Shown here: piece by piece, positions 1 to 29,589 of the stretch | Position numbering within the stretch: position 1 is the first letter of the stretch | Layout of the letters: the number at the start of each line of letters is the position of its first letter | Source of the DNA: Nitrospirota bacterium | GTDB taxonomy: Bacteria > Nitrospirota > Thermodesulfovibrionia > Thermodesulfovibrionales > Dissulfurispiraceae | Assembly: GCA_013349595.1 (NCBI GenBank) | Contig: DUZI01000001.1 | Span: 1-31,652 of the forward strand | Length of the DNA stretch: 31,652 nucleotides | Direction: 5' to 3' | Program-made: the position numbers and the translations under genes | The notes under the pieces: model-generated | Seen by the model: the letters and a program-made list of their open reading frames with translations, nothing else | The model's database searches: none | Told to the model about the DNA's origin: nothing

Positions 1-186
1 AGGGCTGTTTCAGGCTTTTTATAATCGACAGATTTTATTTAATTTTGCTTTATTCATTATAATGCAATGCCTTATGACAAAACCCTAGAAACTTTTTTTT
101 ATATGGTGTCGTATAAAAATTCCACACCAGCCCTTCCTATCTTACTTGCTGAATTTATTAAGCTTTTTAGTTCTATCGCCGATTTT
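1..186 (+). repeat. Family A ~200-bp structured intergenic repeat (MITE/REPIN-like), copy 1, cut by the window edge
   Basis: Near-identical to copies at 842-1040, 7014-7213 and 19361-19563; begins AGGGCTGTTTCAGG, has internal CAGCCCTTCCTATC (128-141) and ends GTTCTATCGCCGATTTT. Confidence 0.9.
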
Positions 187-318
187 GCCTTAGAGATACT
201 TTTTAAATAAAATTATTGTATTATAATAACTACGATAAAATAAATGTTTTTTTAATCCATATGTTGGGCGAAAATTCGACTTATTATTTAAAATTACATT
301 TATAAAAAATCTCATATA

Positions 319-855
319 ATGGAAGACCTATCTTTACACATACTTGATATAGTAGAAAACTCCCTCAATGCAGGTGCCTCAAATGTGTCAATAAAAATAG
401 TTGAAGACGATGAAAACTTTATCGTTACTATAGTTGACAATGGCAAGGGCATGGACGAGGAGACCCTAAAAAATATCTTTGACCCTTTTTTTACAACAAA
501 AAATGCAAGAAATTTTGGATTTGGTATACCCTTATTTGCTCAAACTGCAGAACAATGCGGCGGAAGACTTGATATAAAATCTAAGGTTGGCTTTGGCACT
601 GAGGTATCTGTTTATTTAAAGAAAAATCATATAGACATGCTTCCAATTGGTGATTTGGGATTGACTATCATAACCCTCATAATATCTAACCCAGAGGTAA
701 ACTATCAACTTATATACAAAAATGGCAATTACATCTATGAATTAGACACCGCAGAATTAAAGTCAGGTATAGACTCTATTACAGAGGCACAAACCCTTCA
801 TTTTATAAGAAATCATATAAATGATGGGATTAAATCAACACAAAATCAGCGATAG
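319..855 (+). CDS. Stand-alone histidine-kinase-like ATPase (HATPase_c); resembles the family found in [FeFe]-hydrogenase operons
   Basis: N-box LDIVENS, G1 DNGKGM, F-box DPFFTT, G2 GFGIP; no HisKA or sensor domain; N-terminus MEDLSLHILDI is typical of the family. Confidence 0.8.
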   Translation: MEDLSLHILDIVENSLNAGASNVSIKIVEDDENFIVTIVDNGKGMDEETLKNIFDPFFTTKNARNFGFGIPLFAQTAEQCGGRLDIKSKVGFGTEVSVYLKKNHIDMLPIGDLGLTIITLIISNPEVNYQLIYKNGNYIYELDTAELKSGIDSITEAQTLHFIRNHINDGIKSTQNQR

Positions 856-1040
856 AACTAAAAGCTTAATAAATTCAGCAAGTAAGATAGGAAGGACTGG
901 TGAAGGATTTTTATACAACACCTTATAAAAAAAAGTTCCAGGGCTTTGTCATAAGGCATTGCATTATAATGAATAATGCAAAATTAAATAAAATCTGTCG
1001 ATTATAAAAAGCCTGAAACAGCCCTTCCTATCGCTATTTT
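842..1040 (-). repeat. Family A repeat, copy 2 (inverted relative to copy 1)
   Basis: Reverse complement of copy 1; ends AAAATCAGCGATAG ... CTATCGCTATTTT. Confidence 0.92.
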
Positions 1041-1074
1041 AAGCTATTATTTTAAGGTATCATGAGAAGATTAA

Positions 1075-1248
1075 ATGACAAAGATTGATTGTTTTAAATG
1101 TATATATTTTTTTATAACCTACGATGCAAACTTTCCTTATGGTTGCAAACTAATGGGTTTTAAGTCGAAAAAACTGCCATGCAAAGAGGTCTTTACTACA
1201 TCTGGTGAGGAATGCAAGGGTTTTCAAGAAAAGACAGTGAACCCTTAA
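1075..1248 (+). CDS. Small Cys-rich conserved protein (57 aa), absent from the ORF track
   Basis: Manual translation MTKIDCFKCIYFFITYDANFPYGCKLMGFKSKKLPCKEVFTTSGEECKGFQEKTVNP; the CxxC...FPYGC...GFKS...SG.EC pattern matches a small family I recall being annotated as uracil-DNA glycosylase. Confidence 0.75.
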   Translation: MTKIDCFKCIYFFITYDANFPYGCKLMGFKSKKLPCKEVFTTSGEECKGFQEKTVNP

Positions 1249-1283
1249 AGAGTTATTAATGAAAAAATTAAGGTATAAATATA

Positions 1284-2225
1284 ATGATTACTGATTTTGC
1301 TTATTTGTTACTTGGTTTTATTTTGGCTTGTATTGGTGGGGAATTCTTTGTTCGTGGCTCTGTGGGGATTGCCCATTGGGCAAGGATTTCGCCAGGTATA
1401 ATTGGAGCCACTGTGGCTGCCTTTGGCACATCAAGTCCAGAGCTTTCTGTAGCTATAAATTCAGGCCTTACTAACCAATCAGATATAGCACTCGGTGATG
1501 CACTTGGTAGTAATTTATTAAATGTTGCCCTGATACTTGGCATTACGCTCTGTATATCTGGAATCCAATCAAATCGTGAAAGTATAAAGAGAGATTTCCC
1601 TTCTGCATTGTTAATCCCAATAATTACTGCTTTTTTTGCCTATGATGGAGTCTTATCAAGGATAGAGGCAGTGTTAATACTCCTTTACTTCGTAATATGG
1701 TTAACCTTGACTGTTATTGAGGCAAAAAAACAAAGAGATTTGACAGATAAAATCATTGGTGAACACAACATTATCAAGGTATTGATGATTACCCTTTCAG
1801 GATTGGCCATCTTGTTTGTATCTGGTAAATTCATAGTAACTGGTGCAGGTGCAATAGCCATTTCCTTAGGTATTGACAAATTCATAGTTGGGGCTATAAT
1901 TGTTGCAATCGGTACATCAACACCTGAACTTGCCACCACTGTAATTGCCAAATTAAAGGGACATGATGAGGTAGGACTTGGAACAATCCTTGGCAGTAAC
2001 ATTTTCAATGGTGGCTTTATTGTATCTGTCTCAGCGCTTATCTCTCCTATAGTATTTAATTGGAATGAGGTATTAATAACCCTGATTTTTGGGGTTGTTA
2101 CAATCCTTATTACTTATCCATATAAAGATGGATTTATAAGCAGGAAAAAGGGATTTTTATTACTCGCCATTTATGTGGTCTATATCTTTTTATTGTGGCA
2201 AAATAAGGGAACTTTAAAAATCTGA
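1284..2225 (+). CDS. Calcium/sodium antiporter (CaCA, YrbG-like)
   Basis: Two alpha-repeats, GTSSPEL...GSN and GTSTPEL...GSN; about 10 hydrophobic segments. Confidence 0.93.
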   Translation: MITDFAYLLLGFILACIGGEFFVRGSVGIAHWARISPGIIGATVAAFGTSSPELSVAINSGLTNQSDIALGDALGSNLLNVALILGITLCISGIQSNRESIKRDFPSALLIPIITAFFAYDGVLSRIEAVLILLYFVIWLTLTVIEAKKQRDLTDKIIGEHNIIKVLMITLSGLAILFVSGKFIVTGAGAIAISLGIDKFIVGAIIVAIGTSTPELATTVIAKLKGHDEVGLGTILGSNIFNGGFIVSVSALISPIVFNWNEVLITLIFGVVTILITYPYKDGFISRKKGFLLLAIYVVYIFLLWQNKGTLKI

Positions 2226-2236
2226 AACACCTTAAG

Positions 2237-2749
2237 TCATACCGATTCATTAATAATCAGACTTTTGTCATCAATAAAGGCCTTTGCCTCTAAGATAACT
2301 ATATTCCCCTTTGAAATACCTCTCACATATCCCTCTGGATAGGAACTTAGAGTTGGGATGTTTGTATCAATAGAATCTTCCTTTATTTTTTGGACTAATC
2401 CTATTTTATCAACTATAATAGAAGTTACAAACTCATCGCAAGAGATTATTATTAATTTACTTTTTTCATCATTATCTCTACAAGATATGCCAAAGATTAC
2501 TCTTAAATCAATAATAGGCAATATAAGCCCCCTATAATTAACTACACCAAAAAGAAAAGCTGGAGAAGATGGAACCTTAATGACATCATAAGTGACAAAA
2601 ACCTCCTTTATAAATTTTGTCTCAAAGGCATATCTTTCACCACAAAGGACAAAATCAAGCACCTCTATCTCCTTTCTACTGTCATCCTTTATTGTCCTTT
2701 CCCTGCTAATTAATTGTGCCCTCTTTCTTAATATGTCCTCTTTTTTCAT
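2237..2749 (-). CDS. cheW: CheW adaptor, with an N-terminal extension typical of ACF/Wsp-like systems
   Basis: ERYAFE, VPSSPAFLFGVVNYRGLILPIIDL; N-terminal ILRKRAQL helix. Confidence 0.9.
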   Translation of the reverse strand: MKKEDILRKRAQLISRERTIKDDSRKEIEVLDFVLCGERYAFETKFIKEVFVTYDVIKVPSSPAFLFGVVNYRGLILPIIDLRVIFGISCRDNDEKSKLIIISCDEFVTSIIVDKIGLVQKIKEDSIDTNIPTLSSYPEGYVRGISKGNIVILEAKAFIDDKSLIINESV

Positions 2750-4203
2750 TTAATCTTTATCTCCTTTATATGTGAATGAGATAATTCAAGTATCCTTCCT
2801 ACATTCATCTCTAAGTCTTCAATAACCTGTTCTTTGTCTGTCATGGCAAGAGAGTCAATAACATTTTGAAACTCCTTTAAAGCCTCTTCTTTTTTATGAG
2901 ACCTCAATAATAAATTAGCAAGTCTAAATCTTACAGAGACTAAATCATTTTTGATATATAAAACATTTCTCCAGGTCTCTAAAGCGCCCAGCAAATTACC
3001 ACTTTCTTCTAAGATAACAGCCTTTAAAAAGTAGGCTTTTAAATCAAGTTTGTTAATATTAATTGCCTTATTTAAAATTGCAAGGGCTTCATCTAAAAGC
3101 CCTGAGTTTGCCTTATCCTGTGCCTTTTTTAAGAGATTACTTAATAAACCATCCTTTTCTCCATTAGAAGACTCAACGGGAATGTTTTTTGTGTGGGTAC
3201 CCTTTGATTTTTTTGATACTCTCTCATATCTCTTTACTTCTTTAGTAATATCAACAGACTGATTAAGTTTATAAGATTTTAAATCAAACTGATCCAATAA
3301 ATTATCAATTTTATCTGAAGTAGTTGAATTAACTGATTTTGTATCTACTTTTAATAACTTGGGCTGTTTTTTAAAGACCACATAGCCATCAAAACTTATT
3401 GGATTTAGATATGAATTGCTATATGCCTGCATATCTACTGGTGATGTTATAAGCCATCCATTGACAAATAGTAGATTAGTGAGAAAATCCAACACCTTTG
3501 TCCTAAGTGCTTCGTTAAAATACATTATGACATTTCTACAAAAAATCACATCATAGAGGCATAATTTTTTTGACTGCCTATCACTTTCTGATGCAAGGTT
3601 AAATTGATAAAACTCAACAAACCTCTTTAATTTTGGAGAAATTTCATAGAGACCTTTCTTTATTTCTACAAAATGTTCCTTCTTTAACCACTCTGGTGCC
3701 CCCCTAAAAGACCATTCTTTATAAATGCCTGATTTGGCTTTATCAAGGGAAGCCGAATTAATATCGAAAGCCATGATTTTTATATCCCAACCTTTAAGGA
3801 TAGAGCTTAACTTGTCAATAATTATTGCAATAGAATATGGTTCCTCACCTGTAGAACAACCAGCACTTAGAATATTTATTTCTTTATGGGATAAATTTTT
3901 TTTGTCTCTGACTATCTCTGGAATTATATTATCTTGAAGTATCTGAAAGGATTTCATATCCCTCATGAAAAAGGTCTCTCCTACTGTTAGATATTGAGCT
4001 AATGTTGTCAAATCGTTTCTGTCAAGAGATCTTTCAGAGAGTAGAAGAAGAAGTCTGTCATAGTCCTTTATACCCTTTTCTTTCATGAAGGCCTTTAGTC
4101 TCTGCTCAAATTCTTTTATACGATTTTCTTGATAATAAAGACCTAATTGTTCATTAACTAAAGAGCTAAGCTTTAAAAGGACTTCTGTATTCACAATCGT
4201 CAA
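2746..4203 (-). CDS. cheR: CheR methyltransferase with C-terminal TPR region (WspC/FrzF-like)
   Basis: TVGETFFMRD, SAGCSTGEEPYS, DVIFCRNVIMYF; C-terminal TPR-like helices (AYFLKAVILEESG). Confidence 0.9.
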   Translation of the reverse strand: MTIVNTEVLLKLSSLVNEQLGLYYQENRIKEFEQRLKAFMKEKGIKDYDRLLLLLSERSLDRNDLTTLAQYLTVGETFFMRDMKSFQILQDNIIPEIVRDKKNLSHKEINILSAGCSTGEEPYSIAIIIDKLSSILKGWDIKIMAFDINSASLDKAKSGIYKEWSFRGAPEWLKKEHFVEIKKGLYEISPKLKRFVEFYQFNLASESDRQSKKLCLYDVIFCRNVIMYFNEALRTKVLDFLTNLLFVNGWLITSPVDMQAYSNSYLNPISFDGYVVFKKQPKLLKVDTKSVNSTTSDKIDNLLDQFDLKSYKLNQSVDITKEVKRYERVSKKSKGTHTKNIPVESSNGEKDGLLSNLLKKAQDKANSGLLDEALAILNKAININKLDLKAYFLKAVILEESGNLLGALETWRNVLYIKNDLVSVRFRLANLLLRSHKKEEALKEFQNVIDSLAMTDKEQVIEDLEMNVGRILELSHSHIKEIKIK

Positions 4204-4216
4204 TTTAGGACTTCAA

Positions 4217-6901
4217 CTACTGTCTTGACATCTCTCTTAGTATGTCTTCTAATCGCTTAAGTTCTTCACCATACTTTGCCCAATTACCCTGTCTCTGCAT
4301 CTCAATAGCCCTTTCAAAGCTCTTTAATGCCTCCCTTGAGAGATTAGTCCCTGCAGGGATCTTATCAGGTGCCTTTTTGTCATCAACCTTCACTGATTTT
4401 TTTGAACCAAAAAGTCTTTGAAGGGCACTTTCAAGGTTTTCTTCCATAACCACTTCATTTTCATATGAAACAATGACCCTTCTTAGTTCAGGCAAACCAA
4501 CTTTATCAGATGCAGAAAGATAAAGGGGTTGCACGTAAAGTAGTGATTTTTCAATAGGAATTACAAGGAGACTACCCCTTATAACTTGAGAACCCCTTTG
4601 CCCCCAGAGGGTGAGTTGTTGAGAAATGTAAGAGTCCTGATTTATCCTTGCATCAACCTGTTTGGGTCCATAGATAAGTCTGTCTCTTGGGAAGGTATAT
4701 ACTATAATCTTTCCATAATTTTCACCATCACACCTTGCAGCAAGCCATGCGGCTAAGTTATCCCTCTTTGCAGGGACATAAGGAAGCAACAAAATATATT
4801 CTTCTTTTTTGCCACCCGGCAATTTCATAATCGTGTAGTAAGGCTCCATAGGCTTATCTGCAAAGGTTGGTATCTCCCAGAGGTTTTCCTTGTTATAAAA
4901 AACCTTTGGGTCAGTCATGTGATAGGCTGAGAGCATCTGTGCCTGCACCTGTAACATCATCTGTGGGTATCTGATATGGCTTCTAAGATCATCAGGCATG
5001 TCTTTTAGTGATTTAAAGAGTTGAGGGAATATCTTTGAATAAACCCTTATAAGAGAATCACTATTGTCACTTATGTAAAATTTGACAGAGCCATTATAGG
5101 CATCAACAGTTGTCTTTACAGAGTTTCTGATATAGTTTATGTTTCTATTTATCAGCTTTGAATAGGGGAATCTGTCTGTAACTGTATAGGCATCAATAAT
5201 CCAGACAAGGTGTCCTTCCTTTGTAACAACGAGATAGGGGTCCTTATCAAAGATTAAAAAGGGTGCTAATTTTTTCACCCTTTGCGATATATTTCTGTTA
5301 TAGAGAATCCTACTCTCACTGGTAATATCTGTTGAAAGTAATATCTTCTCTGTGGCAAATCTTATAGAAAATAATACCCTTCTTAATATTGAATCAATGG
5401 GCACTCCACCTATCCCCTTGTAAGAGGTATAGACATTGTCAGTAGAAGTAGGATAACTAAACTCTGGCACCTTTGTTTTGACAATCACATAATCGTTTGA
5501 CATCTCACCATAATAAATCTCTGGCCTCGTCACCTTTATATCTGCTGTGCTTACAGGGGGTATGTCTTTGATGATAAATTCAGGTAATCCTTCTTTGCTG
5601 ATCCTGCTAACCGGTCCCATAGTAATGCCATTTCCATGAGTAAAAATAAGCCTTTCGTTAATCCATGACTTGCTTGGCAAGTCGTTATAAGACAACTCGC
5701 GTGGTGAAAGCATAACCTGAATATATTCACCATTGATGGTATATCTATCATTGTCAACATCGGCAAATCTGTAATAAGTCCTTATCTGCTGAAGCTGGCT
5801 ATAGGTTCTTAAAAGTGGCGAATGATCCCAGAGGCGAATGTTCTTAATAGTTGCCTCGTTTTTCTCAATGTCTCTTGCTGTAAGATTATAGTCCACATCA
5901 AAGGGAATAACCTCTATTCTGTCAAGGTCAAAACCCTTTCGGGTAAAGTTTATGCTGTGTTGAATATATGGCATCTCAAGGGCAAGTTCATTTGGAGAGA
6001 CCTTTAACTTTTGAAGCAACATGGGATAGGCTATCAATCCAGCAATATATATTACTGCGGTAACAAGAATTGGCATCATTGCAATCTTAAAAGCCCCTCT
6101 CAAAGCTGCCACAATAAATATGACCGCTGATATAGGTGTCATAAAAGCAAGTGCCCGAAGGGCTATAAGCCTTGCATTAATATCAGTATATCCTGCCCCA
6201 GAGACAACCGTTGATGTTGAATAAAGGAGTTTAAAGGAATTAATGTAAAAACCAAGACCTAATACGCAGATAAACATACCTGCAAGTATTAGGACATGGG
6301 TCTTGACTCTCTTATTTATCAAAAAGAATGTCCCTGTAAAAACTATACCACCCCTTAGAAGATAATTAATTGCAATGATTGCAAGGGTTGATAAAAATGT
6401 AAAACTAAGAAAACCCCTCAAGGAATCCATAAAGGATAATTCAAATAAATAAAAGCCAAGGTCTTTTTGAAATATTGGATCTAATGTCTTCATTTCAACA
6501 GTATTAATGAAAAGGAGCAACTCTTCCCATCTCAATGCACCCCATTGGCCTGTTAGTAATGTGATAATAATGATAACAATATAAGAAAGTGGCATAATTA
6601 ACTTCTCAAGGCCTTCAATTTTAATAGGCAACACCATCCCATCAATACTCAAAGAAGCCCTTTCAGGAAACTGTATAGTCCTTGCAATGAATAGATTAAA
6701 GAGGGCAAAAACGAGGAAAACAATACCAAAGATAAAACCAGACAAGGCTTTATATGAAAGAGTTTTTATAAATACATCCACATACCCTGTCTCTATAAAA
6801 AACAACCAGTCAGAATAAAAACCTGTGACTATTACAGCAATAATACTAAAGATGAATAATGCGACAAAAGTCATAGGTGAAAAAATTTTGTACTTCCTCA
6901 T
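4217..6901 (-). CDS. UPF0182 family membrane protein
   Basis: DWLFF..GY, DPIFQKDLGFYLF, NIRLWDH, RPEIYYGE, NYIRNSVK motifs; N-terminal TM segments. Confidence 0.92.
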   Translation of the reverse strand: MRKYKIFSPMTFVALFIFSIIAVIVTGFYSDWLFFIETGYVDVFIKTLSYKALSGFIFGIVFLVFALFNLFIARTIQFPERASLSIDGMVLPIKIEGLEKLIMPLSYIVIIIITLLTGQWGALRWEELLLFINTVEMKTLDPIFQKDLGFYLFELSFMDSLRGFLSFTFLSTLAIIAINYLLRGGIVFTGTFFLINKRVKTHVLILAGMFICVLGLGFYINSFKLLYSTSTVVSGAGYTDINARLIALRALAFMTPISAVIFIVAALRGAFKIAMMPILVTAVIYIAGLIAYPMLLQKLKVSPNELALEMPYIQHSINFTRKGFDLDRIEVIPFDVDYNLTARDIEKNEATIKNIRLWDHSPLLRTYSQLQQIRTYYRFADVDNDRYTINGEYIQVMLSPRELSYNDLPSKSWINERLIFTHGNGITMGPVSRISKEGLPEFIIKDIPPVSTADIKVTRPEIYYGEMSNDYVIVKTKVPEFSYPTSTDNVYTSYKGIGGVPIDSILRRVLFSIRFATEKILLSTDITSESRILYNRNISQRVKKLAPFLIFDKDPYLVVTKEGHLVWIIDAYTVTDRFPYSKLINRNINYIRNSVKTTVDAYNGSVKFYISDNSDSLIRVYSKIFPQLFKSLKDMPDDLRSHIRYPQMMLQVQAQMLSAYHMTDPKVFYNKENLWEIPTFADKPMEPYYTIMKLPGGKKEEYILLLPYVPAKRDNLAAWLAARCDGENYGKIIVYTFPRDRLIYGPKQVDARINQDSYISQQLTLWGQRGSQVIRGSLLVIPIEKSLLYVQPLYLSASDKVGLPELRRVIVSYENEVVMEENLESALQRLFGSKKSVKVDDKKAPDKIPAGTNLSREALKSFERAIEMQRQGNWAKYGEELKRLEDILREMSRQ

Positions 6902-7013
6902 TTATAACCTCCCGTTATAGCGAATAATATGGCAATAAACTACCACAGTGAACACAACCATTATATTTATTTAAGAACAAAAAACTGTCTTCATTGTTCT
7001 AAAAATTTACCCC

Positions 7014-7213
7014 AAAATAGGCGATAGAACTAAAAAGCTTAATAAAATCAGCAAGTAAGATAGGAAGGGCTGTGAAGGATTTTTATACGATACCTTATAA
7101 AAAAGTTCCTCGGGCTTTGTCATAAGGCATTTCATTATAATGAATAAAAAGCAAAATTAAATAAAGTTTGTCGATTATAAAAAGCCTGAAACAACCCTTC
7201 CTATCGCCATTTT
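7014..7213 (-). repeat. Family A repeat, copy 3
   Basis: Same sequence and orientation as copy 2; ends GCGATAGAACTAAAAAGCTT ... CCCTTCCTATCGCCATTTT. Confidence 0.92.
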
Positions 7214-7252
7214 AAAGTTATTACTTTCCCTCTGATACCCCTTTTATTATAT

Positions 7253-8320
<1,068 letters not shown>

Positions 8321-9223
8321 TTATAACTTCCTATATACTGAGTTTGAGACCCTTGTATATGGCAAATTCATACCACTCATCGTCTCTGAATGACCAATGA
8401 ACAAAAAACCACCTTCTTTTAGACAATTATAAAATCTCATAAAAAGTCTCTCTTGAGTTTCTTTGTCAAAATATATAACGACATTCCTACAAAATATAAT
8501 ATCAAGGGGTTCACGAAAACAAAAGTCTGTATCCATAAAATTTAAAACCCTAAATCTTATCTTTGACCTTAATTCAGGCACAAATCTGACAAGTCCTCTC
8601 GACCTATCCTTGCTCTTTAGTAGATATTTTTTTCTCAAATCTATGGGTATTCCACCAATCTTATCATCCTCATATATACCTCTTTTGCCTATTTCAAGAA
8701 CCCTTTGAGATATATCTGAGGCAATAATAAGGAAATCAAAGCCCTTTCCCTGACACCTTTCTTTGAACTCATTTAAAACCATAGCAATCGTATAAGGCTC
8801 TTCGCCAGTAGAACACCCCGCACTCCATATGACAAAAGGCTCTTTAATACCGCTATGGTAATTTATTACCAAATCTGGCAACGCTGATCTTATTAAAAAG
8901 TCAAATTGTTCAGCCTCCCTAAAGAATTCAGTCTTGTGTGTCGTAACAAGATCAATCATGTGTATGAGTTCATCTTTCATCCCTTCAGGACTGAAAACAT
9001 AATCACAATAATCTGAAAACGAATTTAAATGAAGCGCCCTTACTCGCTTTTGTAACCTTGACTCCAGGAGCGTCTTCTTAGCAGGAGGCATCTTGACACC
9101 AAGATTTGACTCTATAAAATCGCTTAATCTTTTAAAGTCTTTTTCTGTAAGAGTATAACCTGTATAGAAAGATTTTGGAATATTATCATCAATATCAAGT
9201 TCTAATCCCTTTTTGACAGCCAT
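8321..9223 (-). CDS. cheR: CheR methyltransferase
   Basis: TTHKTEFFRE, WSAGCSTGEEPYT, DIIFCRNVVIYF. Confidence 0.96.
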   Translation of the reverse strand: MAVKKGLELDIDDNIPKSFYTGYTLTEKDFKRLSDFIESNLGVKMPPAKKTLLESRLQKRVRALHLNSFSDYCDYVFSPEGMKDELIHMIDLVTTHKTEFFREAEQFDFLIRSALPDLVINYHSGIKEPFVIWSAGCSTGEEPYTIAMVLNEFKERCQGKGFDFLIIASDISQRVLEIGKRGIYEDDKIGGIPIDLRKKYLLKSKDRSRGLVRFVPELRSKIRFRVLNFMDTDFCFREPLDIIFCRNVVIYFDKETQERLFMRFYNCLKEGGFLFIGHSETMSGMNLPYTRVSNSVYRKL

Positions 9224-9816: not shown

Positions 9817-9854
9817 TTTTTATTTAAAAAGACTGTAATTGTGCAAAATCCTAT

Positions 9855-9878
9855 AGGTCTCTCTCTAAAAGGAGACCT
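9855..9878. terminator. Possible intrinsic terminator hairpin between cheW and bioY
   Basis: AGGTCTC ... GAGACCT stem; the T-tract follows on the + strand, so it is weak for minus-strand transcription. Confidence 0.3.
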
Positions 9879-9899
9879 TTTATTTAAAAATAATCGTGT

Positions 9900-10394: not shown

Positions 10395-10464
10395 AGTAAC
10401 CTCCTTTATAAGCCAGGATTATTTTATTAAAACTATCTTCAAAATCACCTTCTTTTAAAATGCT

Positions 10465-19271: not shown

Positions 19272-19360
19272 TTTTACCTTTTATGAGAAATTTTATTTTG
19301 AAAATGGCTTACCATCTTAACAATTAGCATTAACAATAGTCAATTTTTCCCTCCAACCTT

Positions 19361-19563
19361 AAAATAGTGCTTAGGAAGGGCTGTTTCAGGATTTTTATAA
19401 TCGACAGATTTTATTTATAATTTTGATTTATACATTAAAATCAATGCCTTATGACAAAGCCCTACAAACTTTTTTTTATAAGGTGTCGTATAAAAATTCC
19501 ACACCAGCCCTTCCTATCTTAGTTGCTACTTTTACTAAGCTTTTAAGTTCTATCGCTATTTTT
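19361..19563 (+). repeat. Family A repeat, copy 4
   Basis: Same orientation as copy 1; AAAATAGTGCTTAGGAAGGGCTGTTTCAGG ... GTTCTATCGCTATTTTT. Confidence 0.92.
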
Positions 19564-19573
19564 GGGTTTTCTG

Positions 19574-19602: not shown

Positions 19603-19677
19603 ATCAACCACCTTAAACATGAAAGTCCTTATTCTTTCAATTAAGCAGAATTATGTCAATAAATCTATTAGAAAACC

Positions 19678-20694: not shown

Positions 20695-21689
20695 TTTCAA
20701 GAGATGATATTGTCATAGTAACAGTGACCTATTCTGAACGATGGGATTATCTCAAAAAATCCATCAAATCGTGCATATTACAAGGCATAAGGAACTTTGT
20801 CATTTTTGCTAACGGGATTAAATACAATCTTAACGAAAAGATAACCCAGGAATTTTCAAATAGAGGAGATATTATTTTTAATATCTTAAGCGAAAAGACC
20901 AATAAGGGATCTGCCTTTGGCTACAACCTTGCCATTTCAGAGGCATTTAAGTCCAATAAATCCTATATAATGTTGCTTGACGATGATGGCGAATTACAAG
21001 AGGGCTGTATTAACAAACTCATAGATGCATATGATTTACTTAGCAAAGAATACGGCATAGATAATCTTATGATTAGTGCCTTAAGGAAAGAGCATATAAG
21101 TGATATTAAAGAAGGCATCATAGAAAGGATGAGAAAAAATGCCTTTAGGAGATTTCACATAGCTGAGATATTTCACAGAATAATGAGGCATTCAATAATC
21201 ACCTACCCTGAAAAGATTGCTATCCCCTATGCTGTATATAGCGGGCTTTTTTTTCACAAATCCGTAATCAATAGGTTTGGACTGCCAAATAAATCCTTTT
21301 GTCTTTATGGAGATGACTTGGAGTTTACCTATCGTATGACATCAAATGGTGGGGTAATATTTCTAATTACAAATGCACAGATAAGCGATATTCAGATGTC
21401 TTGGTGGTGTAGAAAAAGTTATGGAAATCCCTTTGATGCCCTTATACTTGGGGGTATTGACAGACTTATCTATTATGCCTTTAGAAATGAGGTATATTTT
21501 GAGAAATACTGTTGCAAAAAGACGGGAATTATCTATAATCTCCACAAATATACTTTTATGCTAATCCTGTTCTTAAATGCCTTAAGACATAGGAGATTAA
21601 AGAGATTCAAGATCCTCTTAGATGCCCTAAAAGATGGAAACAAAGGCATATTGGGTGAGAACATAAACTATCCCCTGAATAACGATTAA
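20691..21689 (+). CDS. Glycosyltransferase family 2
   Basis: VTVTYS, NKGSAFG, LLDDD, GLPNKSFCLYGDDLEF. Confidence 0.88.
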   Translation: MISRDDIVIVTVTYSERWDYLKKSIKSCILQGIRNFVIFANGIKYNLNEKITQEFSNRGDIIFNILSEKTNKGSAFGYNLAISEAFKSNKSYIMLLDDDGELQEGCINKLIDAYDLLSKEYGIDNLMISALRKEHISDIKEGIIERMRKNAFRRFHIAEIFHRIMRHSIITYPEKIAIPYAVYSGLFFHKSVINRFGLPNKSFCLYGDDLEFTYRMTSNGGVIFLITNAQISDIQMSWWCRKSYGNPFDALILGGIDRLIYYAFRNEVYFEKYCCKKTGIIYNLHKYTFMLILFLNALRHRRLKRFKILLDALKDGNKGILGENINYPLNND

Positions 21690-21701
21690 TGAGCATATCT
21701 T

Positions 21702-22679
21702 ATGGTTTATATAATCTTAATTAACTACAATGGCTGGCATCATACAATCTTATGTCTTGAAAGTCTTTTAAATTTAGACTACGAAGAATTTAAGATAATA
21801 ATTATAGATAATGGCTCAAGGGATAGCTCTGTTGACATTATCAAGATGTGGCTTGACAATAGGTTATGTGCTTATATTGACAAAGGACATCCTCTACGAA
21901 GCCTTATAGATTCATCAATGGCACGAGATTATAAAAAAATCAATCTTATCGAGAATAATCATAATCTCGGCTTTGCAGGTGCTAATAATAAAGGCATGCA
22001 GATTGCCCTATCAGATGATGCTTGCAAATATGTTTGGTTATTAAATAATGACACCATTGCATCAAGGGATAGTCTAAAGAAGATGATTAGTTGTGCTGAA
22101 AATAAAGCAAACAAAAAGATTGGTATAATTGGCAGTAAGTTAATGTATTTTGACAGTCCAGAGGTAATAAATGGGCTTGGTGGAAAGTATATTAAATGTA
22201 TTGGCAAACCCATTCAATTAGGTATCAATGAGATTGACAGAGGACAATCTTTTAAAGAGATTGATTATGTCATTGGTGCGTCTATGCTTGTTAGAAAGGA
22301 ATTTATTATTGATGTAGGCTTATTATCTGAGGATTACTTTCTCTATTATGAGGAATTGGACTGGTCTATAAGGGCAAAGCAGAAAGGTTGGCAGATAATG
22401 CAATGCAATGAAGCCATAGTCTATCACAAAGAAGGCTCAACAATTGGCTCAAACAAGAGATTAAAAACAAAGACAGTTGTTACTGATTACTACACCAATA
22501 GAAACAGGATTTTGATAACTAAAAGGTATTTTCCGCTTTACCTACCTACTGTCTTAATGGCATCTGTCATCAATTGTATCTTGAGGGCATGGCAAGATGG
22601 CTACTCAACAATAGGAATAATTTGTAAGGCAATCTTGCACGGACTAAATGGTAAAAAGGCTTTCTATGAAGGATTATAA
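21702..22679 (+). CDS. Glycosyltransferase family 2 (rhamnosyltransferase-like)
   Basis: IILINYNG, IDNGS, NLGFAGANN, LLNNDT, FLYYEELDW. Confidence 0.92.
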   Translation: MVYIILINYNGWHHTILCLESLLNLDYEEFKIIIIDNGSRDSSVDIIKMWLDNRLCAYIDKGHPLRSLIDSSMARDYKKINLIENNHNLGFAGANNKGMQIALSDDACKYVWLLNNDTIASRDSLKKMISCAENKANKKIGIIGSKLMYFDSPEVINGLGGKYIKCIGKPIQLGINEIDRGQSFKEIDYVIGASMLVRKEFIIDVGLLSEDYFLYYEELDWSIRAKQKGWQIMQCNEAIVYHKEGSTIGSNKRLKTKTVVTDYYTNRNRILITKRYFPLYLPTVLMASVINCILRAWQDGYSTIGIICKAILHGLNGKKAFYEGL

Positions 22680-23787
22680 AATAGCACTCATTCACGATTG
22701 GCTTGTCACAATAGCTGGTGCAGAATCAGTCTTAAGCACAATCTATGAACTTTATCCAGCTGATATTTTTACCCTTGTTTCAAATACAGATGCACTCAGG
22801 GGAACTATTTTTGAAAATGCCACAGTCTATGAGTCCTTTATAAAAAAAATGCCTTTTTCAATAAAACATTACAGAAAATACCTTCCCATTATGCCACTTG
22901 CCATTGAGGACTTTGACCTAAGAGACTATGATATAGTCATCTCAAGCAGCCATGCAGTAGCAAAAGGGGTATTGACCTCATCAAGACAACTCCATATATC
23001 TTACATCCACACACCTATGAGATATGCTTGGGATATGTATCACTTGTATTTAAAACAAGCTGGACTTCAAGGCTCTCTCAAGGGATTACTTGCAAAGCTT
23101 ATATTACACTACTTACGACTGTGGGACTACCAGTCTATTGACAGGGTTGACTATATCATTGCCAATTCAAACTATGTAAAAAAGAGGATTTACAAGATTT
23201 ACAAAAGAGATTCAGAGGTAATCTATCCACCCGTTGATTTATCAGGCTTTGATTATCAAAAGAAAAAAGATGATTATTTTATTACCATCTCAAGACTTGT
23301 CCCCTATAAAAGAATTGATTTGATAGTCACTGCCTTTAGTCAAATGCCTGAACTGAGGTTGATTGTCATTGGTGATGGGCCTGATATGGATAAGATAAGT
23401 TCATTGGCAAAATCCAATATTGAACTCCTTGGTTGGCAATCAAAGGACCATCTTAAGGACTATTTAGAGTCTGCGAGGGCTTTTGTCTTCTCTGCAGAAG
23501 AAGACTTTGGGATTGTGCCTGTGGAGGCACAGGCTTGTGGATGTCCTGTAATTGCCTATTCACAAGGAGGCACCTCTGAAACAGTTGTAAATGGCAAGAC
23601 TGGTATATTCTTTCACAGCCAGTCCGTTGATGCCATTATGAAAGGGGTTAGAGAATTCATTCAGATAGAGAATAGTTTTGATTCAAAAACTATCAGAGAA
23701 AATGCTGAGAGATTTAGTAAGGATAAGTTCAAGTCTGCCTTTACTAATTTTGTTGAGACAAAGGTGAAGGTGTTTTTTAATGAATAA
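22666..23787 (+). CDS. Glycosyltransferase family 4 (WbaZ-like); start adjusted from 22648
   Basis: KIALIHDWL..GAE.V, SSSHAVAKG, HTPMRYAWD, EEDFGIVPVEAQACG. Confidence 0.9.
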   Translation: MKDYKIALIHDWLVTIAGAESVLSTIYELYPADIFTLVSNTDALRGTIFENATVYESFIKKMPFSIKHYRKYLPIMPLAIEDFDLRDYDIVISSSHAVAKGVLTSSRQLHISYIHTPMRYAWDMYHLYLKQAGLQGSLKGLLAKLILHYLRLWDYQSIDRVDYIIANSNYVKKRIYKIYKRDSEVIYPPVDLSGFDYQKKKDDYFITISRLVPYKRIDLIVTAFSQMPELRLIVIGDGPDMDKISSLAKSNIELLGWQSKDHLKDYLESARAFVFSAEEDFGIVPVEAQACGCPVIAYSQGGTSETVVNGKTGIFFHSQSVDAIMKGVREFIQIENSFDSKTIRENAERFSKDKFKSAFTNFVETKVKVFFNE

Positions 23788-25198
23788 CACACTTTACTTA
23801 GTAATTCTAATCATTACAGACCTAATCGCCTTTTACATATCCTTTGCCCTTGCATATATCACAAGGCTCGGCTTAAATCTGATATTTGCTGGGCTGCCAA
23901 TCTTTGATATACCTATGTCATTTTTCATCAGACAAATTTGGATACCTTTAATACTATTGTCCCTTTTATGGTATCAAGGGCTATATATAAAGAGACAAAA
24001 CTTCTGGCTTGATGCAAAAGACATTACAAAGTCTGTATTATTCTCATTAATAATTGTCCTTGCAGTTATTACATTGTCAAAAATGACTGATGAGATATCA
24101 AGGCTTTTTGTGTTGTTAATGTTTGTTTATTGTCTTTTTATCACACCACTAACAAGGCTCTTTGTAAAAAAAATACTTCATTTAAGGGGATTTGCCACTC
24201 AGAAAGTAGTCTTAATTTGTCCTATGGAAGATGTTAATAATTTATCTCAACTAATTGAAGGAGATAAGTATTTAGGCTTTCAGATAGGAGCCATATTTAG
24301 CAATGAAAGGGCAGAGATAAGTATTGACGGGAGAATAGTAAAAATTTACAAGTCAACAAAATGGCTAAAAAGGATTGCCCAGATAATCTCAGCCCAGACT
24401 GCCTTTGTCTCATTCAGAAATGAAATGGCTTCGGAAGTCAATATTCGTCAGATACAGATGATGGTTAAAAAAATCTATGTCATCCCAGATATAGATTTGA
24501 TAACCCATCTAAAGACGGAGATTATCCCACTTTTACGAGATGATTTGCCCTTACTGTTTATTAAAAACAATCTAAAAGAGCCTGTAAATACGATTCTTAA
24601 AGGCATATTCGACTATATCTTTACAATTTTGCTTTTTCCGTTTTTTATTCCCCTTGTCCTTTTATCAGCTGTATTGATAAAGATTGATTCAAGGGGTCCT
24701 GTATTTTTTAAACAAAAAAGGGTAGGTAAAGGTGGGAAGGAGTTTGAAGTTTATAAATTTAGGACTATGTATCTTGACAACCAGTCAAGGCTTGATAAAT
24801 ACCTTAAAGCAAACCCAGAGGCAAGAGAACAAATGGAGATGTTTTGTAAACTAAAAGATGACCCAAGGATAACTCACATTGGAAGACTTTTAAGAAAGAC
24901 CTCTATTGATGAACTCCCACAATTAATCAATGTCCTCAAGGGTGAGATGAGTCTTGTAGGTCCAAGACCTGCCTTTAAAGAAGAACTATCAAACTATTAC
25001 AGAGATTTGGCTGATTTTTATAAAGAAGTCAAGCCTGGAATAACAGGACTCTGGCAAGTATCAGGACGAAATCAACTTACTATGAAAGATAGGGCAAGGC
25101 TTGAAGCCTTTTATGTGATTAACTGGTCTCTTTGGTTTGATATAGTTATACTGTTTAAAACTATAAAGGTAGTATTAAAAAAAGAGGGTGCCTATTAG
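23780..25198 (+). CDS. wbaP: Undecaprenyl-phosphate hexose-1-phosphate transferase (WbaP/WcaJ family)
   Basis: N-terminal TMs; YKFRTM, DDPRIT, RKTSIDELPQL, GEMSLVGPRP, KPGITGLWQVSGR. Confidence 0.9.
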   Translation: MNNTLYLVILIITDLIAFYISFALAYITRLGLNLIFAGLPIFDIPMSFFIRQIWIPLILLSLLWYQGLYIKRQNFWLDAKDITKSVLFSLIIVLAVITLSKMTDEISRLFVLLMFVYCLFITPLTRLFVKKILHLRGFATQKVVLICPMEDVNNLSQLIEGDKYLGFQIGAIFSNERAEISIDGRIVKIYKSTKWLKRIAQIISAQTAFVSFRNEMASEVNIRQIQMMVKKIYVIPDIDLITHLKTEIIPLLRDDLPLLFIKNNLKEPVNTILKGIFDYIFTILLFPFFIPLVLLSAVLIKIDSRGPVFFKQKRVGKGGKEFEVYKFRTMYLDNQSRLDKYLKANPEAREQMEMFCKLKDDPRITHIGRLLRKTSIDELPQLINVLKGEMSLVGPRPAFKEELSNYYRDLADFYKEVKPGITGLWQVSGRNQLTMKDRARLEAFYVINWSLWFDIVILFKTIKVVLKKEGAY

Positions 25199-25202
25199 AA
25201 GA

Positions 25203-25922
25203 TCAGAGCAGATCCTTTAACTCATTGACTATACTTTTTAGTCTTTCTTTTTTTTGGAGTTCAACTACATCAAACTTAAAGGCAAAACGTGCTTTATCAG
25301 ATGACATATTTATATCAAGTGCCTGTATCCTTATTACTACCGCATTAACCACAAAAGTTTCACCTGAACCATTGTTCAAAAAACTGATAGATACCTTATC
25401 AAGGATATTAGGGATTGGCTCTTTTGTATTTAAATTCATTAATATGCCACCAAAGCTAATATCAACAATATCACCGTTGGTCTTTTTATCACTAAAGGAA
25501 ATCTCCACCTTGCCAGATAATCCATGCCTTTCATGCTCCCTGCGGTCAAACTTTTCGTGTATCTCTGCCAACTTCCTTATAAAAGCATCTATGGTAAAAG
25601 GCAGAGTTATAAAGCCATCTGCCCCCTCTTTTAAGCTATTTATAACATCCTCTTTATCATTTCTTGAAGCGATAATTAGGGCATAGGAGTTTTTTATTTG
25701 TTTTGACTTAAAGGTCTTCAGAAGTTCTAAATGATTAAGTTCCTTATCAGTTATATTTATGACAATTAAATCATAATCTTTCTCTTGAATCTTGATTAAG
25801 GCATCTAAAAAATCATTTGAGTCATCAATATCAACCTCCCGATAAGCCTTCTCAAGTGCAAACTTCAGGTTGTTTCTTTGTTCCTTTGAACTATCAACTA
25901 GGATAAATTTTAGCCCGTTCAT
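25203..25922 (-). CDS. Degenerate receiver domain fused to PilZ
   Basis: REC-like N-terminus lacking the phospho-Asp and conserved Lys; RREHER and DISFGG PilZ motifs. Confidence 0.82.
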   Translation of the reverse strand: MNGLKFILVDSSKEQRNNLKFALEKAYREVDIDDSNDFLDALIKIQEKDYDLIVINITDKELNHLELLKTFKSKQIKNSYALIIASRNDKEDVINSLKEGADGFITLPFTIDAFIRKLAEIHEKFDRREHERHGLSGKVEISFSDKKTNGDIVDISFGGILMNLNTKEPIPNILDKVSISFLNNGSGETFVVNAVVIRIQALDINMSSDKARFAFKFDVVELQKKERLKSIVNELKDLL

Positions 25923-26434
25923 TTATACCTCTTAACAGTGAATTTGTATAATTCTATATCATTATCGTCAGGATTAATACCAGCCTTCATTTTTGTAATT
26001 CGTAACTGCTCTTGGACAGTATTTACCCCTTCAATATCAGGCAACAAAAGACCCCTTTTATATCCTTTAGATACAATCACTCCAAATTTTTTAGGATCTA
26101 ATTCAGAAATATCGTTAACCATCATTGGTTCTGACAGGACATCTACAGATATATCAATTTCTGATAACTCATCCGGATTTACCTTTGGGAATCTCGGGTC
26201 TTCCTGCGATGCAGAGATGGCATTAATAACAATCTCCTCAAAGATATTATCCCTTGTAGGCATAAAAGTCCCTATACAACCCCTCAAAAGCCCTTTCTTC
26301 TTTAATGAAACAAAGACACCAGCCTTGATTTTAAAATCATCAGATAACTCGGATGGAGACTTTAGAGGCTTGCCTGTCTTTAAATAGTATTCAATAGATT
26401 TTCTTGCCAAATCTACATAGGGATGGTTACTCAT
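25919..26434 (-). CDS. amrA: AmmeMemoRadiSam system protein A (AMMECR1 family)
   Basis: GVFVSL...LRGCIGT, DPRF, SVDVLS, GLLLP. Confidence 0.92.
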   Translation of the reverse strand: MSNHPYVDLARKSIEYYLKTGKPLKSPSELSDDFKIKAGVFVSLKKKGLLRGCIGTFMPTRDNIFEEIVINAISASQEDPRFPKVNPDELSEIDISVDVLSEPMMVNDISELDPKKFGVIVSKGYKRGLLLPDIEGVNTVQEQLRITKMKAGINPDDNDIELYKFTVKRYK

Positions 26435-26503
26435 TTTTTACTCCTTAAAAAAACTAATTAAGCATATGGATTCTCTTACACCAAAGAATACATATAATCT
26501 ATT

Positions 26504-26647
26504 CCGAGATCCAGCGATAAGGATAAGTCTCTTTCATTCAGGAGCTATGTTTTGACAGTTCTATTGCTCATTTCGCTACAGCCGCAAAGAACTGTTGCCC
26601 AAACATCGCTATTCGCTTCAGAGCCCCATCCTTATCGCTGTATTTGG
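26504..26647. repeat. Family B ~140-bp hairpin element (MITE/REPIN-like), complete copy
   Basis: Perfect 13-bp inverted ends CAGCGATAAGGAT (26512-26524) / ATCCTTATCGCTG (26628-26640); internal imperfect inverted arms; second copy at the window end. Confidence 0.85.
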
Positions 26648-26648
26648 A

Positions 26649-27632
26649 CTATTTTTGCCTCTTCAAAGAATACTCTGCAAGGGCAATAAGCCTTTGCTTT
26701 GTAATAGATGGCTCAAAAATATTTATACACTCCTTTGCCTGATTAATAAAATCTAATGCCACTGCCATTGACTCATCAATCGATTTGTATTCTGAAAAAA
26801 AAGTCCTAATCCTTTCCATTGTTGCCTTCTTATCCTTTATATTTGCATAATTTTTTACAATGTCTCTAACCTCACTTGATACCTCTGATGGTGAGTTTTT
26901 TAGTAAACTAATGAGGGGCATTGTAATCTTGCCCTCCTCTAAATCCTTGCCGAGTTTTTTCCCTAGTGTCTTTGGATTAGCAGAATAATCAAGGACATCA
27001 TCAACAAGCTGAAAGGCTATACCTGTATTTTTTCCAAAATCCATAAGCCTGTCCTCAACTTGAGGTGATTGATTTGCTATTATCGCACCAATCTTACATG
27101 CCGATGATATTAATACAGCTGTCTTTCCAGAGATAATCTTGTAATAATCTTCAATAGATATATCGGGGTCTGCAGTCTTTTCAAGTTGAAGTATCTCTGC
27201 CTCTGTCATCTTTGTAGTGGCAAAAGAAAGTGTCTCCATTATCTTTTGATTTTTCTGTAATACAGCAAGTCTCAGGGCATTTGAATATAGATAATCTCCT
27301 ACCAAAATTACGATCTGATTTCCCCACTTTGAATTAGCAGATGGCTTACCACGTCTTGTATCTGCTCTATCAATCACATCATCGTGCAGCAGCGATGCAG
27401 TATGAATGGCTTCAATAATAGCTGCAAGGTGGATTTTATTATCACTTTTTGAACCACATAAATCAGCACTTAACAACAAAAAAAGGGGTCTTAACCTCTT
27501 TCCACCACTATTGATTATATGGTAGCCAATGGTTGGCAACAAGGTTGGAGTCCCTTGAAAGATATTGAGCAATTCTTTTTCAACGGCTAATAATTCCTCA
27601 TGATAATGAGCAATAACCTCGTTAAAATTCAT
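26649..27632 (-). CDS. Long-chain trans-polyprenyl diphosphate synthase
   Basis: GGKRLRP, LLHDDVID...RRG, FQLVDDVLD, GKDLEEGK.T. Confidence 0.95.
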   Translation of the reverse strand: MNFNEVIAHYHEELLAVEKELLNIFQGTPTLLPTIGYHIINSGGKRLRPLFLLLSADLCGSKSDNKIHLAAIIEAIHTASLLHDDVIDRADTRRGKPSANSKWGNQIVILVGDYLYSNALRLAVLQKNQKIMETLSFATTKMTEAEILQLEKTADPDISIEDYYKIISGKTAVLISSACKIGAIIANQSPQVEDRLMDFGKNTGIAFQLVDDVLDYSANPKTLGKKLGKDLEEGKITMPLISLLKNSPSEVSSEVRDIVKNYANIKDKKATMERIRTFFSEYKSIDESMAVALDFINQAKECINIFEPSITKQRLIALAEYSLKRQK

Positions 27633-28658
27633 TTATATCCTTATGCCTCTCAATTCTTCAGGCTTGAAGACACCCTTTTCAGTAAAAAAAGCGGTCACAT
27701 ATCTTGCAGGAGTAACATCAAAGGCATAGTTAAATATCTTTACACCTTCAGGTGCAATCCTTTGTCCCTGTATATAGGCAACTTCTTCAGGGTCTCTCTG
27801 TTCAATCCTAATCATATCCCCCGAGGACATATTAAAATCAATGCTACTTATTGGTGCGGCTACATAAAAAGGTATGTTGTGTTCCTTACACAAAACCGCT
27901 ACTGTATAAGTTCCAATCTTGTTTGCTACATCACCATTTAAAGTAGTCCTATCTGTCCCTACAATTGCCATATCAATCATACCTTGTTTCATCAACCAAC
28001 CAGCAGAATTGTCGGTTATTAAGGTTGCATCAATATCATTTTGCATCAACTCCCAAGCAGTCAATCGTGCACCTTGTAACACTGGTCTTGTCTCATCTGC
28101 AATCACTTTTATCTTCTTTCCCTGTTGCTTTGCAATAATCATAGGTGCAGTAGCCGTCCCGTAACCACCCGTAGCCAATGAGCCTGCGTTACAGTGTGTC
28201 AGTATGGTATCTCCATCCTTTATAAACTCTGCACCATATTGGCCAATCTTGAGATTTGCCTCAATGTCTTCCCTGTGAATAAGCATAGCCTCTTCGTAAA
28301 GTAGCCTCTTTAAGGTGTTGACATCTTTATCAGCATTATCAATAAGGAGTTTATCAAGCCTCTTCATTGCCCATTCTATATTTACAGCGGTAGGTCTTGT
28401 GGATATCATTGTATCCATGACCTTTTTAATAAAACGGTAAAAACCATCAAAATATGAGGTATTTTGATCTTGTGCAGATAATGCAACCCCCATAGCTGAG
28501 GCAATACCTATAGCCGGTGCCCCCCTGATTGACAAATTCTTGATAGCCTCTGCTACAACCCTGTAATCAGTACATTCAATATATTTAATCTCTAAGGGGA
28601 GCAACCTCTGGTCAAGTATAAATACCTTACCATTTCTCCACTCTACTGCATTTACCAT
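27633..28658 (-). CDS. mtnA: S-methyl-5-thioribose-1-phosphate isomerase
   Basis: LDQRLLP, IRGAPAIG, RPTAVN, THCNAG.LAT, ETRPVLQGARLT, NKIGTY. Confidence 0.96.
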   Translation of the reverse strand: MVNAVEWRNGKVFILDQRLLPLEIKYIECTDYRVVAEAIKNLSIRGAPAIGIASAMGVALSAQDQNTSYFDGFYRFIKKVMDTMISTRPTAVNIEWAMKRLDKLLIDNADKDVNTLKRLLYEEAMLIHREDIEANLKIGQYGAEFIKDGDTILTHCNAGSLATGGYGTATAPMIIAKQQGKKIKVIADETRPVLQGARLTAWELMQNDIDATLITDNSAGWLMKQGMIDMAIVGTDRTTLNGDVANKIGTYTVAVLCKEHNIPFYVAAPISSIDFNMSSGDMIRIEQRDPEEVAYIQGQRIAPEGVKIFNYAFDVTPARYVTAFFTEKGVFKPEELRGIRI

Positions 28659-28716
28659 GTGTTATATACCTCCATTGCTCCCCCTATTTTAAGAGGAGAG
28701 TGAGAGGAAATATAAA

Positions 28717-29292
28717 TTACCAATTTTCACCGTAAAGTTCGAAATGAGCTTGCGGATGGGCACAGGCTGGACATTGCTCTAGTGCTGATTTTCCATGATG
28801 CATATAGCCACAATTTCTACAACGCCAAGTGGTCTCATTATCCCGTTTAAAGACTATCCCTTTTTCAATATTTGACCTAAAATCATTATACCTCTTTTCA
28901 TGTTGTTTCTCTGCCACTGCTATTGCCTCAAAGATTTGAGCAATTGCATCAAAGCCCTCTTCTCTTGCAACCTTTGCAAAGCTTGGATACATAGTAGTAT
29001 GCTCATAATTTTCGCCTCCTGCGGCCTCTTTTAAATTCTCCACAGTTGAGCCAATCACACCTGCAGGGAAACTGCCACAAATCTCTACTTCTCCACCTTC
29101 AAGGAGCTTAAATAGTCTTTTTGCATGTTCCTTCTCCTGATTTGCAGTCTCTTCAAAGATAAAGGCAATCTGCTCATAACCTTCTTTTTTTGCCTGTTTT
29201 GCAAAATAAGTATAACGATTTCTTGCCTGTGACTCACCTGCAAAGGCAGTCAAGATGTTTTTCTCAGTCTTTGTCCCCTTTAATGACTTCAT
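28717..29292 (-). CDS. rbr: Rubrerythrin
   Basis: [24 protein letters not shown]-terminal WRCRNCGY...CPACAH rubredoxin domain; AAGGAGG RBS. Confidence 0.97.
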
Positions 29293-29318
29293 AAATAAGA
29301 CCTCCTTGTGAAAAATTT

Positions 29319-29333
29319 TTATGATAATTATAC
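29319..29333 (-). promoter_or_regulatory. Putative PerR/Fur-family operator overlapping the rbr -10 element
   Basis: GTATAATTATCATAA has two mismatches to the Per box TTATAATNATTATAA and contains TATAAT. Confidence 0.55.
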
Positions 29334-29373
29334 CTTGTATGAATTAGATTAGTAAATTTGATGAATGCTCCTT

Positions 29374-29589
29374 AAAATAGCGATAAGAAGGGCTGTTTCA
29401 GGATTTTTATAATCAACAGATTTTATTTAATTTTGCTTTATTCATTATAATGCAATGCCTTATGACAAAGCCCAAGGAACTTTTTTTGTACGACGCCTTA
29501 TAAATATTGCATTATAAAAAATAAAGCAAAATTAAAATGAATTCGTCGATTATAAAAATTTTGAAACAGCCCTTCCTATCGCTATTTTT
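29374..29589. repeat. Family A repeat, copy 5: fold-back hybrid with two A-type arms
   Basis: Arms 29374-29456 and 29506-29588 are inverted copies (about 72/83 identical by manual alignment). Confidence 0.9.

Follow-up and report, generated by a model that had tools for sequence, protein, structure and literature searches.

Hundreds of copies of a short, probably IS1380-type inverted-repeat element in a hot-spring Thermodesulfovibrionales genome

The window analysed here is a stretch of 31,652 nucleotides (31.6 kb) that makes up an entire contig (C1, DUZI01000001.1), the largest of G000, a metagenome-assembled genome (MAG) of the Thermodesulfovibrionales with 1.93 Mb in 344 contigs, 35% G+C and 92% completeness. 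The sole public run containing the window is a hot-springs metagenome, of DNA only. Several intergenic places of the window are occupied by one and the same short element, termed family A, and every related record sharing it is a MAG that carries the label Nitrospirota, Thermodesulfovibrionales or Dissulfurispiraceae. The original prediction, which was made from the letters of the window, had placed five copies there in both orientations; sequence comparison bore this out, and the five places were right while 3-4 terminal bases had been missed at each end. The copies are as follows.

1..189, plus strand: family A copy 1, left tip (~ 15 nt) lost at the contig start, right tip degenerate (..GATTTTGCC)
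839..1044, minus strand: family A copy 2, full length, degenerate tips (CAC.../...AAGC), without target-site duplication (TSD)
7011..7217, minus strand: family A copy 3, full length (CCCAAAATAGGCGATAG ... CGCCATTTTAAAG), without exact TSD
19357..19566, plus strand: family A copy 4, left tip CCTTAAAATAGTGCTTAGG (subfamily A2), between divergent genes, without exact TSD
29370..29592, no strand assigned: family A fold-back variant, two 83-nt A arms, inverted and 87% complementary to each other, without the B tail described below

Copy 3 lies with a UPF0182 gene on one side and cheB on the other, and the fold-back variant is one of nine pairs of inverted A ends observed at 151-327 bp spacing in G000. 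An open reading frame (ORF) of the HATPase_c type (319-855) has its 3' end inside copy 2 (window 839-855). Its last codons and TAG stop (CAA AAT CAG CGA TAG) are the right tip of the element, which indicates that the insertion replaced the original 3' end of the gene; copies thus reshape gene ends, copy 2 supplying a stop codon.

Family A is a non-autonomous transposon, a MITE (miniature inverted-repeat transposable element), which has grown to a few hundred copies in a small hot-spring genome. When family A was searched by BLAST over the whole genome, copies were found elsewhere far above chance, in 377 merged intervals that amount to 66 kb, or 3.4% of the assembly, and are dispersed across most of the 344 contigs, with 189 full-length hits. 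With about one copy per 5-6 kb, family A ranks among the densest of bacterial MITEs. Furthermore, 127 of the 688 contig ends fall inside a family A repeat, which makes the family a main cause of assembly fragmentation and explains the shattering of the MAG into its 344 contigs. On contigs of the source run the summed depth over the repeats is 1,400-4,500 per 667-nt bin compared to 14-15 in unique DNA, a ~ 100-300-fold excess over single-copy depth that fits hundreds of copies and is not itself a copy number.

The consensus of family A is 207 bp long, with no long ORF and no transposase gene. Copies show a median identity of 88% to this consensus, the closest pair being 98% identical, and two large subfamilies are distinguished by their left tip (...AGCGATAGG in 86 copies and ...AGCGCTTAGG in 69). 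Only 3 of 189 copies lie within long ORFs. Divergent-gene gaps are enriched, as they hold 35 of the 94 classifiable copies and represent 101 of the 1395 intergenic gaps of G000, and given this preference the copies may affect regulation.

Ends, TSDs and stems were examined in an alignment of 170 full-length family A copies of G000 with their flanks. Conservation is sharply bounded by 5'-CCTTAAAATAGCGATAGGAAGGG... and ...TTCTATCGCYGATTTTGGG-3' and drops outside CC...GGG. The termini, written CCTTAAAATAGCGATAGG and CTATCGCYGATTTTGGG, are imperfect inverted repeats both starting with CC, and the terminal inverted repeat (TIR) typical of a MITE is present, with CCTTAAAATAGCGATAG facing CCCAAAATCAGCGATAG as the reverse complement of the right end. 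Exact direct repeats of 5-8 bp directly abut the ends in 84 of the 170 copies (5 bp in 36, 6 bp in 37, 7 bp in 10 and 8 bp in a single one), compared to 1.7% of shuffled left/right flank pairings that match at 4 bp or more (p ~ 1e-100), and the duplicated words are 81% A+T. The earlier remark that no TSD is visible is correct for the four complete window copies, none of which has an exact one, but it does not extend to the family. With a size below ~ 600 bp without a transposase ORF, TIRs, a TSD of near-fixed length and multiple copies at dispersed sites, family A displays the usual features of a MITE.

One insertion can be followed within G000 itself. A degraded IS1380-like element, with inverted repeat (IR) CCCAGAATTGTCATTAGAG, is present there in two copies (C188:3131-4168 and C34:131-897) that retain only N- and C-terminal transposase fragments, and each of these remnants holds a different family A insertion, giving an empty/filled site pair. 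At the empty site C34 reads ...CAGAGTATATTTAAGC..., whereas at the filled site C188 reads ...CAGAGTATAT, followed by the element as CCCAAAATCAGCGATAG...CTCTATTTTAAGG and then by TATATTTAAGC..., so that TATAT is duplicated and the element ends are defined as CC...GG; in an alternative written extent the C188 element runs CCCAAAATCAGCG...CTATTTTAAGG. The comparison of empty and filled sites proposed in the original prediction thus yielded one pair, and a TSD is seen in it directly. No usable orthologous empty site was obtained from the three genomes of the same genus (G001-G003), in which synteny with G000 is not conserved, and the contigs of the source metagenome gave no clear empty allele, only repeat-induced joints. 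Insertion is also seen as nesting, since a copy of a second element, family B, has entered a family A copy and is bordered by the duplication TTTTGC; the resulting composite was amplified in its turn and is present five times.

The tips of these elements resemble the IRs of insertion sequences (IS) of the IS1380 family. Transposase genes of PF13701 (IS1380 type) were located in an order-wide sample of 301 genomes of Thermodesulfovibrionales, 93 of which carry them, and their flanks were compared by flank-against-flank BLAST. Autonomous elements of one subgroup measure 1621-1686 bp in G299, G252 and G106 and 1649 bp in a metagenome contig (L138). G042, a genome of the window's own family, shows inverted IRs 3.36 kb apart that enclose two transposase ORFs, and one IR is present in a second metagenome contig (L139). 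The subgroup IR is CCCAAATCCAGCG(A/G)TAAG, written CCCAAATCCAGCGATAAG in the IS1380-family elements examined; three elements have 5-bp duplications (TATTT, AAATA and TATTA), and the three transposases checked score 333-348 bits on NCBIfam NF033539 'IS1380 family transposase', for which the cut-off is 180. Among described members of the family, IS1247 has 1672 bp, an IR of 16/13 and direct repeats of 5 bp (PMC3281130, Table 2), and ISEcp1 also generates 5-bp duplications (PMC2887853).

Family B is a 223-bp MITE with about 60-70 copies genome-wide, and two of them are found in the window.

26504..26647, plus strand: family B copy, internally deleted from the 223-bp MITE, left tip CCGAGATCCAGCGATAAGG identical at 17/19 positions to the IS1380-type IR CCCAAATCCAGCGATAAGG
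31617..31652, plus strand: family B, second copy, left end only, cut off by the contig end

Compared with the subgroup IR, the tips of family B match at 19/20 positions on the right and 17/19 on the left, and those of family A at 14/18 on the right and 12/18 on the left, with CC..AAA..AGCGATA in common; the 5-bp TSD of the autonomous elements is also one of the two most frequent lengths among the MITE copies (36 of 5 bp, 37 of 6 bp). The same tips surround unrelated interiors in families A and B, in a type found on C294 and in several 300-540-bp families of G054, a Dissulfurispiraceae MAG of a different genus. Such common tips around unrelated interiors point to a MITE superfamily served by one kind of transposase, with the tip pattern CC[CT][AT]AAAAT.AGCGATAG and a TSD of 5-6 bp. 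Judging from these sequence comparisons, the repeats very probably constitute an IS1380-type MITE superfamily. The original prediction had described a non-autonomous mobile family with mixed traits that could not be assigned. Its mobile nature is upheld by the absence of coding capacity, the hundreds of copies, the ends, the TSDs, the nesting and the empty site, but the second part has to be revised, as TIRs with TSDs of 5-6 bp are those of a classical MITE and the tips resemble IS1380 IRs. Like the IS themselves (IS1247, ISEcp1 and the subgroup elements L115, L116, L119, L137 and L138), family A has ends beginning with CC, and the subgroup and the MITEs share the IR core CCCAAAT.CAGCGATA and an AT-rich TSD of 5 bp. 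Unlike them, family A measures 207 bp, has no transposase gene and an unrelated interior, and half of its TSDs are of 6 bp. IS1380 is a distant relative of the eukaryotic piggyBac.

Copy number, ends, TSDs, empty site, nesting and the resemblance between the tips and IS1380 IRs are direct observations, and we infer mobilisation by an IS1380-family enzyme, via cut-and-paste or copy-out chemistry. The imperfect terminal inverted repeats would be where an IS1380-family DDE transposase, supplied in trans, binds and cuts, and staggered cuts in an AT-rich intergenic target followed by repair would leave the 5-bp, often 6-bp, TSD. Several observations weigh against this origin. The tips of family A itself are only a moderate match to the IS IR (the 14/18 and 12/18 given above), no IS with exactly these tips was found, and a metagenome scan for the subgroup transposase returned two loci only, both with the same IR and neither with the exact tips of family A. 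Half of the family A copies, including all four complete window ones, are without an exact TSD; sequence decay, at a median identity of 88%, could be the cause, but the frequency of exact TSDs is nearly constant over copy identity (42-56%). In addition, 5- and 6-bp TSDs are about equally common, whereas the autonomous relatives examined give 5 bp. Furthermore, transposase binding alone explains neither the deeply conserved inner core nor the complementarity of the arms beyond the ~ 19-bp IR, as judged by eye. Finally, an intact cognate transposase is not assembled in G000, an absence that weighs little given that the MAG is fragmented and 92% complete.

No element combining family A ends with a transposase gene is assembled in G000, and the longer copy with a transposase, RAYT or recombinase ORF that the original prediction had suggested looking for was not found in this genome. 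Its transposase content consists of mere fragments of DDE_Tnp_1, rve and DDE_Tnp_1_4 genes plus one Y1_Tnp gene, and tblastn with the subgroup transposase gave only 29-40% identity, to a C-terminal remnant of a different IS1380-like element. The only candidate for a longer element between A ends, a 1960-bp interval on C227, turned out to be the hflX gene flanked by two partial copies, and left and right cores more than 140 bp apart are merely family A copies with a nested family B copy. None of the PF01609 and PF00665 transposases of G000, G001-G003, G036, G054 and others is associated with the tips, and tips at G054 contig ends led to 300-540-bp non-coding families and to no IS. The copies may now be immobile, with the cognate enzyme lost, or that enzyme may be encoded in sequence that did not assemble.

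The interior of family A is a long imperfect palindrome, in which the left tip and arm recur inverted internally (CAGCCCTTCCTATC), and a 31-nt segment, the B tail, separates this internal inverted copy from the true right tip. The A end has two alternative pairing partners, the internal CAGCCCTTCCTATC and the terminal CTATCGCTATTTT, which confirms the alternative pairing first noticed in the window. The TTTTTATAATCGACA/TGTCGTATAAAAA stem has a 2-nt bulge, and the consensus folds into a long rod (top strand -59 kcal/mol, bottom strand -54). In the right part of family A (e.g. window 19515-19566) a direct repeat, CTATC...CTATC, encloses the B tail. In other lineages the repeat changes in step with the left tip (CTGTC...CTGTC with GACAG), and the right IR resembles a complete inverted arm that an old insertion of 31 bp has divided.

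A structured RNA, the other option of the original prediction, obtained no support. Over the window Rfam 15 gave 0 hits at the gathering threshold and, at E<=1, only a 14-bit chance match, and G·U and A·C show no strand asymmetry. The G-T pairs that had appeared to be kept on the A-to-B strand are not favoured, with 370 G·T compared to 490 A·C cells in the 170 copies. The change in copy 4 that had seemed compensatory (TTGA/TCAA) is a one-off, as 30 other TGA copies carry ACA and thus an A·A mismatch, in a partial regex sample that matched 46 of the 170 copies. Among 43 diverged elements from other MAGs, double compensatory changes are observed at 11 of the 25 predicted outer-stem pairs (one of them being GC in 13, CG in 11, UA in 8 and AU in 5), and G·U and A·C occupy ~ 8 and ~ 15 of 1075 cells. 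The lack of a G·U excess on either strand fits a DNA-level inverted repeat better than a one-strand transcript. The two arms may be recognised by one protein, or be kept alike by hairpin-templated repair. Promoter and terminator scans displayed nothing above shuffles, and one stretch (AATCGACAGATTA) might conceivably be an IHF-like site.

The element or its hairpin core might also be a functional host module carried on MITE ends, ERIC/REP-like and acting in cis as RNA or DNA, for example as an mRNA stabiliser, an attenuator or a protein-binding site. This explanation is compatible with the MITE reading, and we regard it as possible although rather doubtful. It is favoured by the distribution of the core pair TTTATAATCGACA..N60-90..TGTCGYATAAAA, which was detected in 28 of the 301 genomes sampled from the order, usually in 1-8 copies per genome, with 17 in G036 and 152 in G000, but in none of the three same-genus genomes; the reversed control gave 0 hits. 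At two orthologous sites, each seen in one MAG pair, the element is more similar than its surroundings, being 87.6% identical between hisA and hisF, compared to 72-77% for the flanking genes, and 88.6% identical between hypE and pdxJ, compared to 79-83%. The core, the 2-nt bulge and an asymmetric internal loop (TCTCAG / CTTCACC) are constant, while the outer arms and tips vary by lineage. The outer stem covaries, as described above for 11 of 25 pairs; however, such covariation is also expected if one transposase binds both arms. Orientation relative to tandem genes is biased in other MAGs (22 same and 5 opposite, p=0.0015) as well as in G000 (11 same and 33 opposite, p=0.0013), but the bias is opposite in sign between the two. 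The counts derive from crude ORF calls and, as some loci share a genome or are orthologous, they are not independent of one another. Against a transcribed module, G·U does not exceed A·C on either strand, whether in G000 or across MAGs, Rfam gives no match even at E<=1 (the chance hit apart), and promoter and terminator signals stay at the level of shuffles. Taken together, these observations would fit selection for an effect at the level of the host, as for ERIC or Correia elements, and would fit concerted evolution plus purifying removal of harmful insertions as well. More specifically, the core TTTTTATAATCGACA/TGTCGTATAAAAA may conceivably be an exapted module under purifying selection at orthologous sites, acting in an orientation-dependent manner on neighbouring transcription or mRNA, an analysis-based suggestion that we put forward tentatively and consider unlikely as it stands. 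If true, an exapted core would have borrowed IS1380-type ends, which would have allowed its burst to hundreds of copies in one lineage. The conserved core could serve to test whether a MITE has been domesticated in a thermophile lineage that is uncultured; family A is otherwise a familiar kind of genome parasite, and it is the core alone that merits further work.

It is very unlikely that the element encodes a small protein such as a type I toxin-like peptide, although a loop ORF (MAIVSALQIKGLFVYASKGFTLRCRIKIL...) is seen in other genera (L018-L067), where the same frame is open in 33 of the 43 diverged copies, peptides are similar even between some very different loops and a TATAAT box is located upstream. 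However, the diversity by codon position is nearly flat (0.27/0.22/0.31), in-frame stops occur in 4 of the 43 copies, most indels are not multiples of three, and the family A loop of G000 is without such an ORF. Still less credible, to the point of being practically dismissed here, is that family A belongs to the REP/REPIN sequences or to IS200/IS605-derived palindrome-associated transposable elements (PATEs), moved as single-stranded hairpins by a Y1 (HUH) transposase without a TSD. Its long hairpins with subterminal conserved stems, the window copies devoid of TSD and the one Y1_Tnp protein encoded by G000 (C43:9200-9526) are in line with such a mode, and REP/REPIN-RAYT systems and PATEs are, like family A, hairpin-rich, abundant and intergenic. 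However, these systems are Y1-dependent, insert 3' of a short target motif and have neither TSD nor TIR, whereas family A has both of the latter. The comparison made in the original prediction fails because TSDs are present, in about half of the copies and in the empty/filled pair, and the termini are inverted repeats that resemble IS1380 IRs; moreover, the Y1 gene is single-copy and adjoins no copy, and neither A nor B sequence occurs within 1.6 kb of it.

The Y1_Tnp gene at C43:9200-9526 is noted as a 270-aa gene of IS200/RAYT-like type, with neither family A nor family B at its flanks and no repeat of it elsewhere.

The IS1380-type MITE reading places family A beside other abundant bacterial repeats. 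Correia elements (CREE/NEMIS) of Neisseria measure 100-200 bp and make up about 2% of the DNA of a ~ 2-Mb genome, and no active transposase is known in their host. Both families are MITEs with inverted-repeat ends, a short TSD, hundreds of copies and a mostly intergenic position, but Correia elements differ in sequence and in the suspected parent family, and they duplicate TA. Their documented effects involve promoters, IHF sites and RNase III, whereas for family A none are documented. ERIC of Enterobacteriaceae is a ~ 127-bp imperfect palindrome, conserved across its order or family in a handful to many hundreds of copies. Family A resembles it in being palindromic, order-wide, variable in copy number and intergenic at co-transcribed positions, with orientation effects, but its sequence is unrelated, its likely parent IS family is identified and its TSD is of 5-6 bp. 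No literature joining 'Thermodesulfovibrio' and 'miniature inverted-repeat' was found, literature on IS1380-derived MITEs not having been assessed. The superfamily so defined can be used for masking in the annotation of Thermodesulfovibrionales.

A family A copy in G054 (L068, G054:C1) is by eye nearly identical to the G000 consensus despite belonging to a different genus. The same-genus genomes are without the element, whereas L068 in another genus has it, and this near-identity suggests a recent horizontal spread of family A or of its master copy.

Finally, an antisense ORF of 493-523 aa spans nearly the whole transposase gene in three of the autonomous IS1380-type elements (L115:1345-2916, minus strand; L116:389-1900, plus strand; L119:1221-2702, plus strand), the transposases of which are 72-89% identical. 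It has no Pfam or NCBIfam match, and it may represent either an artefact of codon bias or a genuine overlapping gene.

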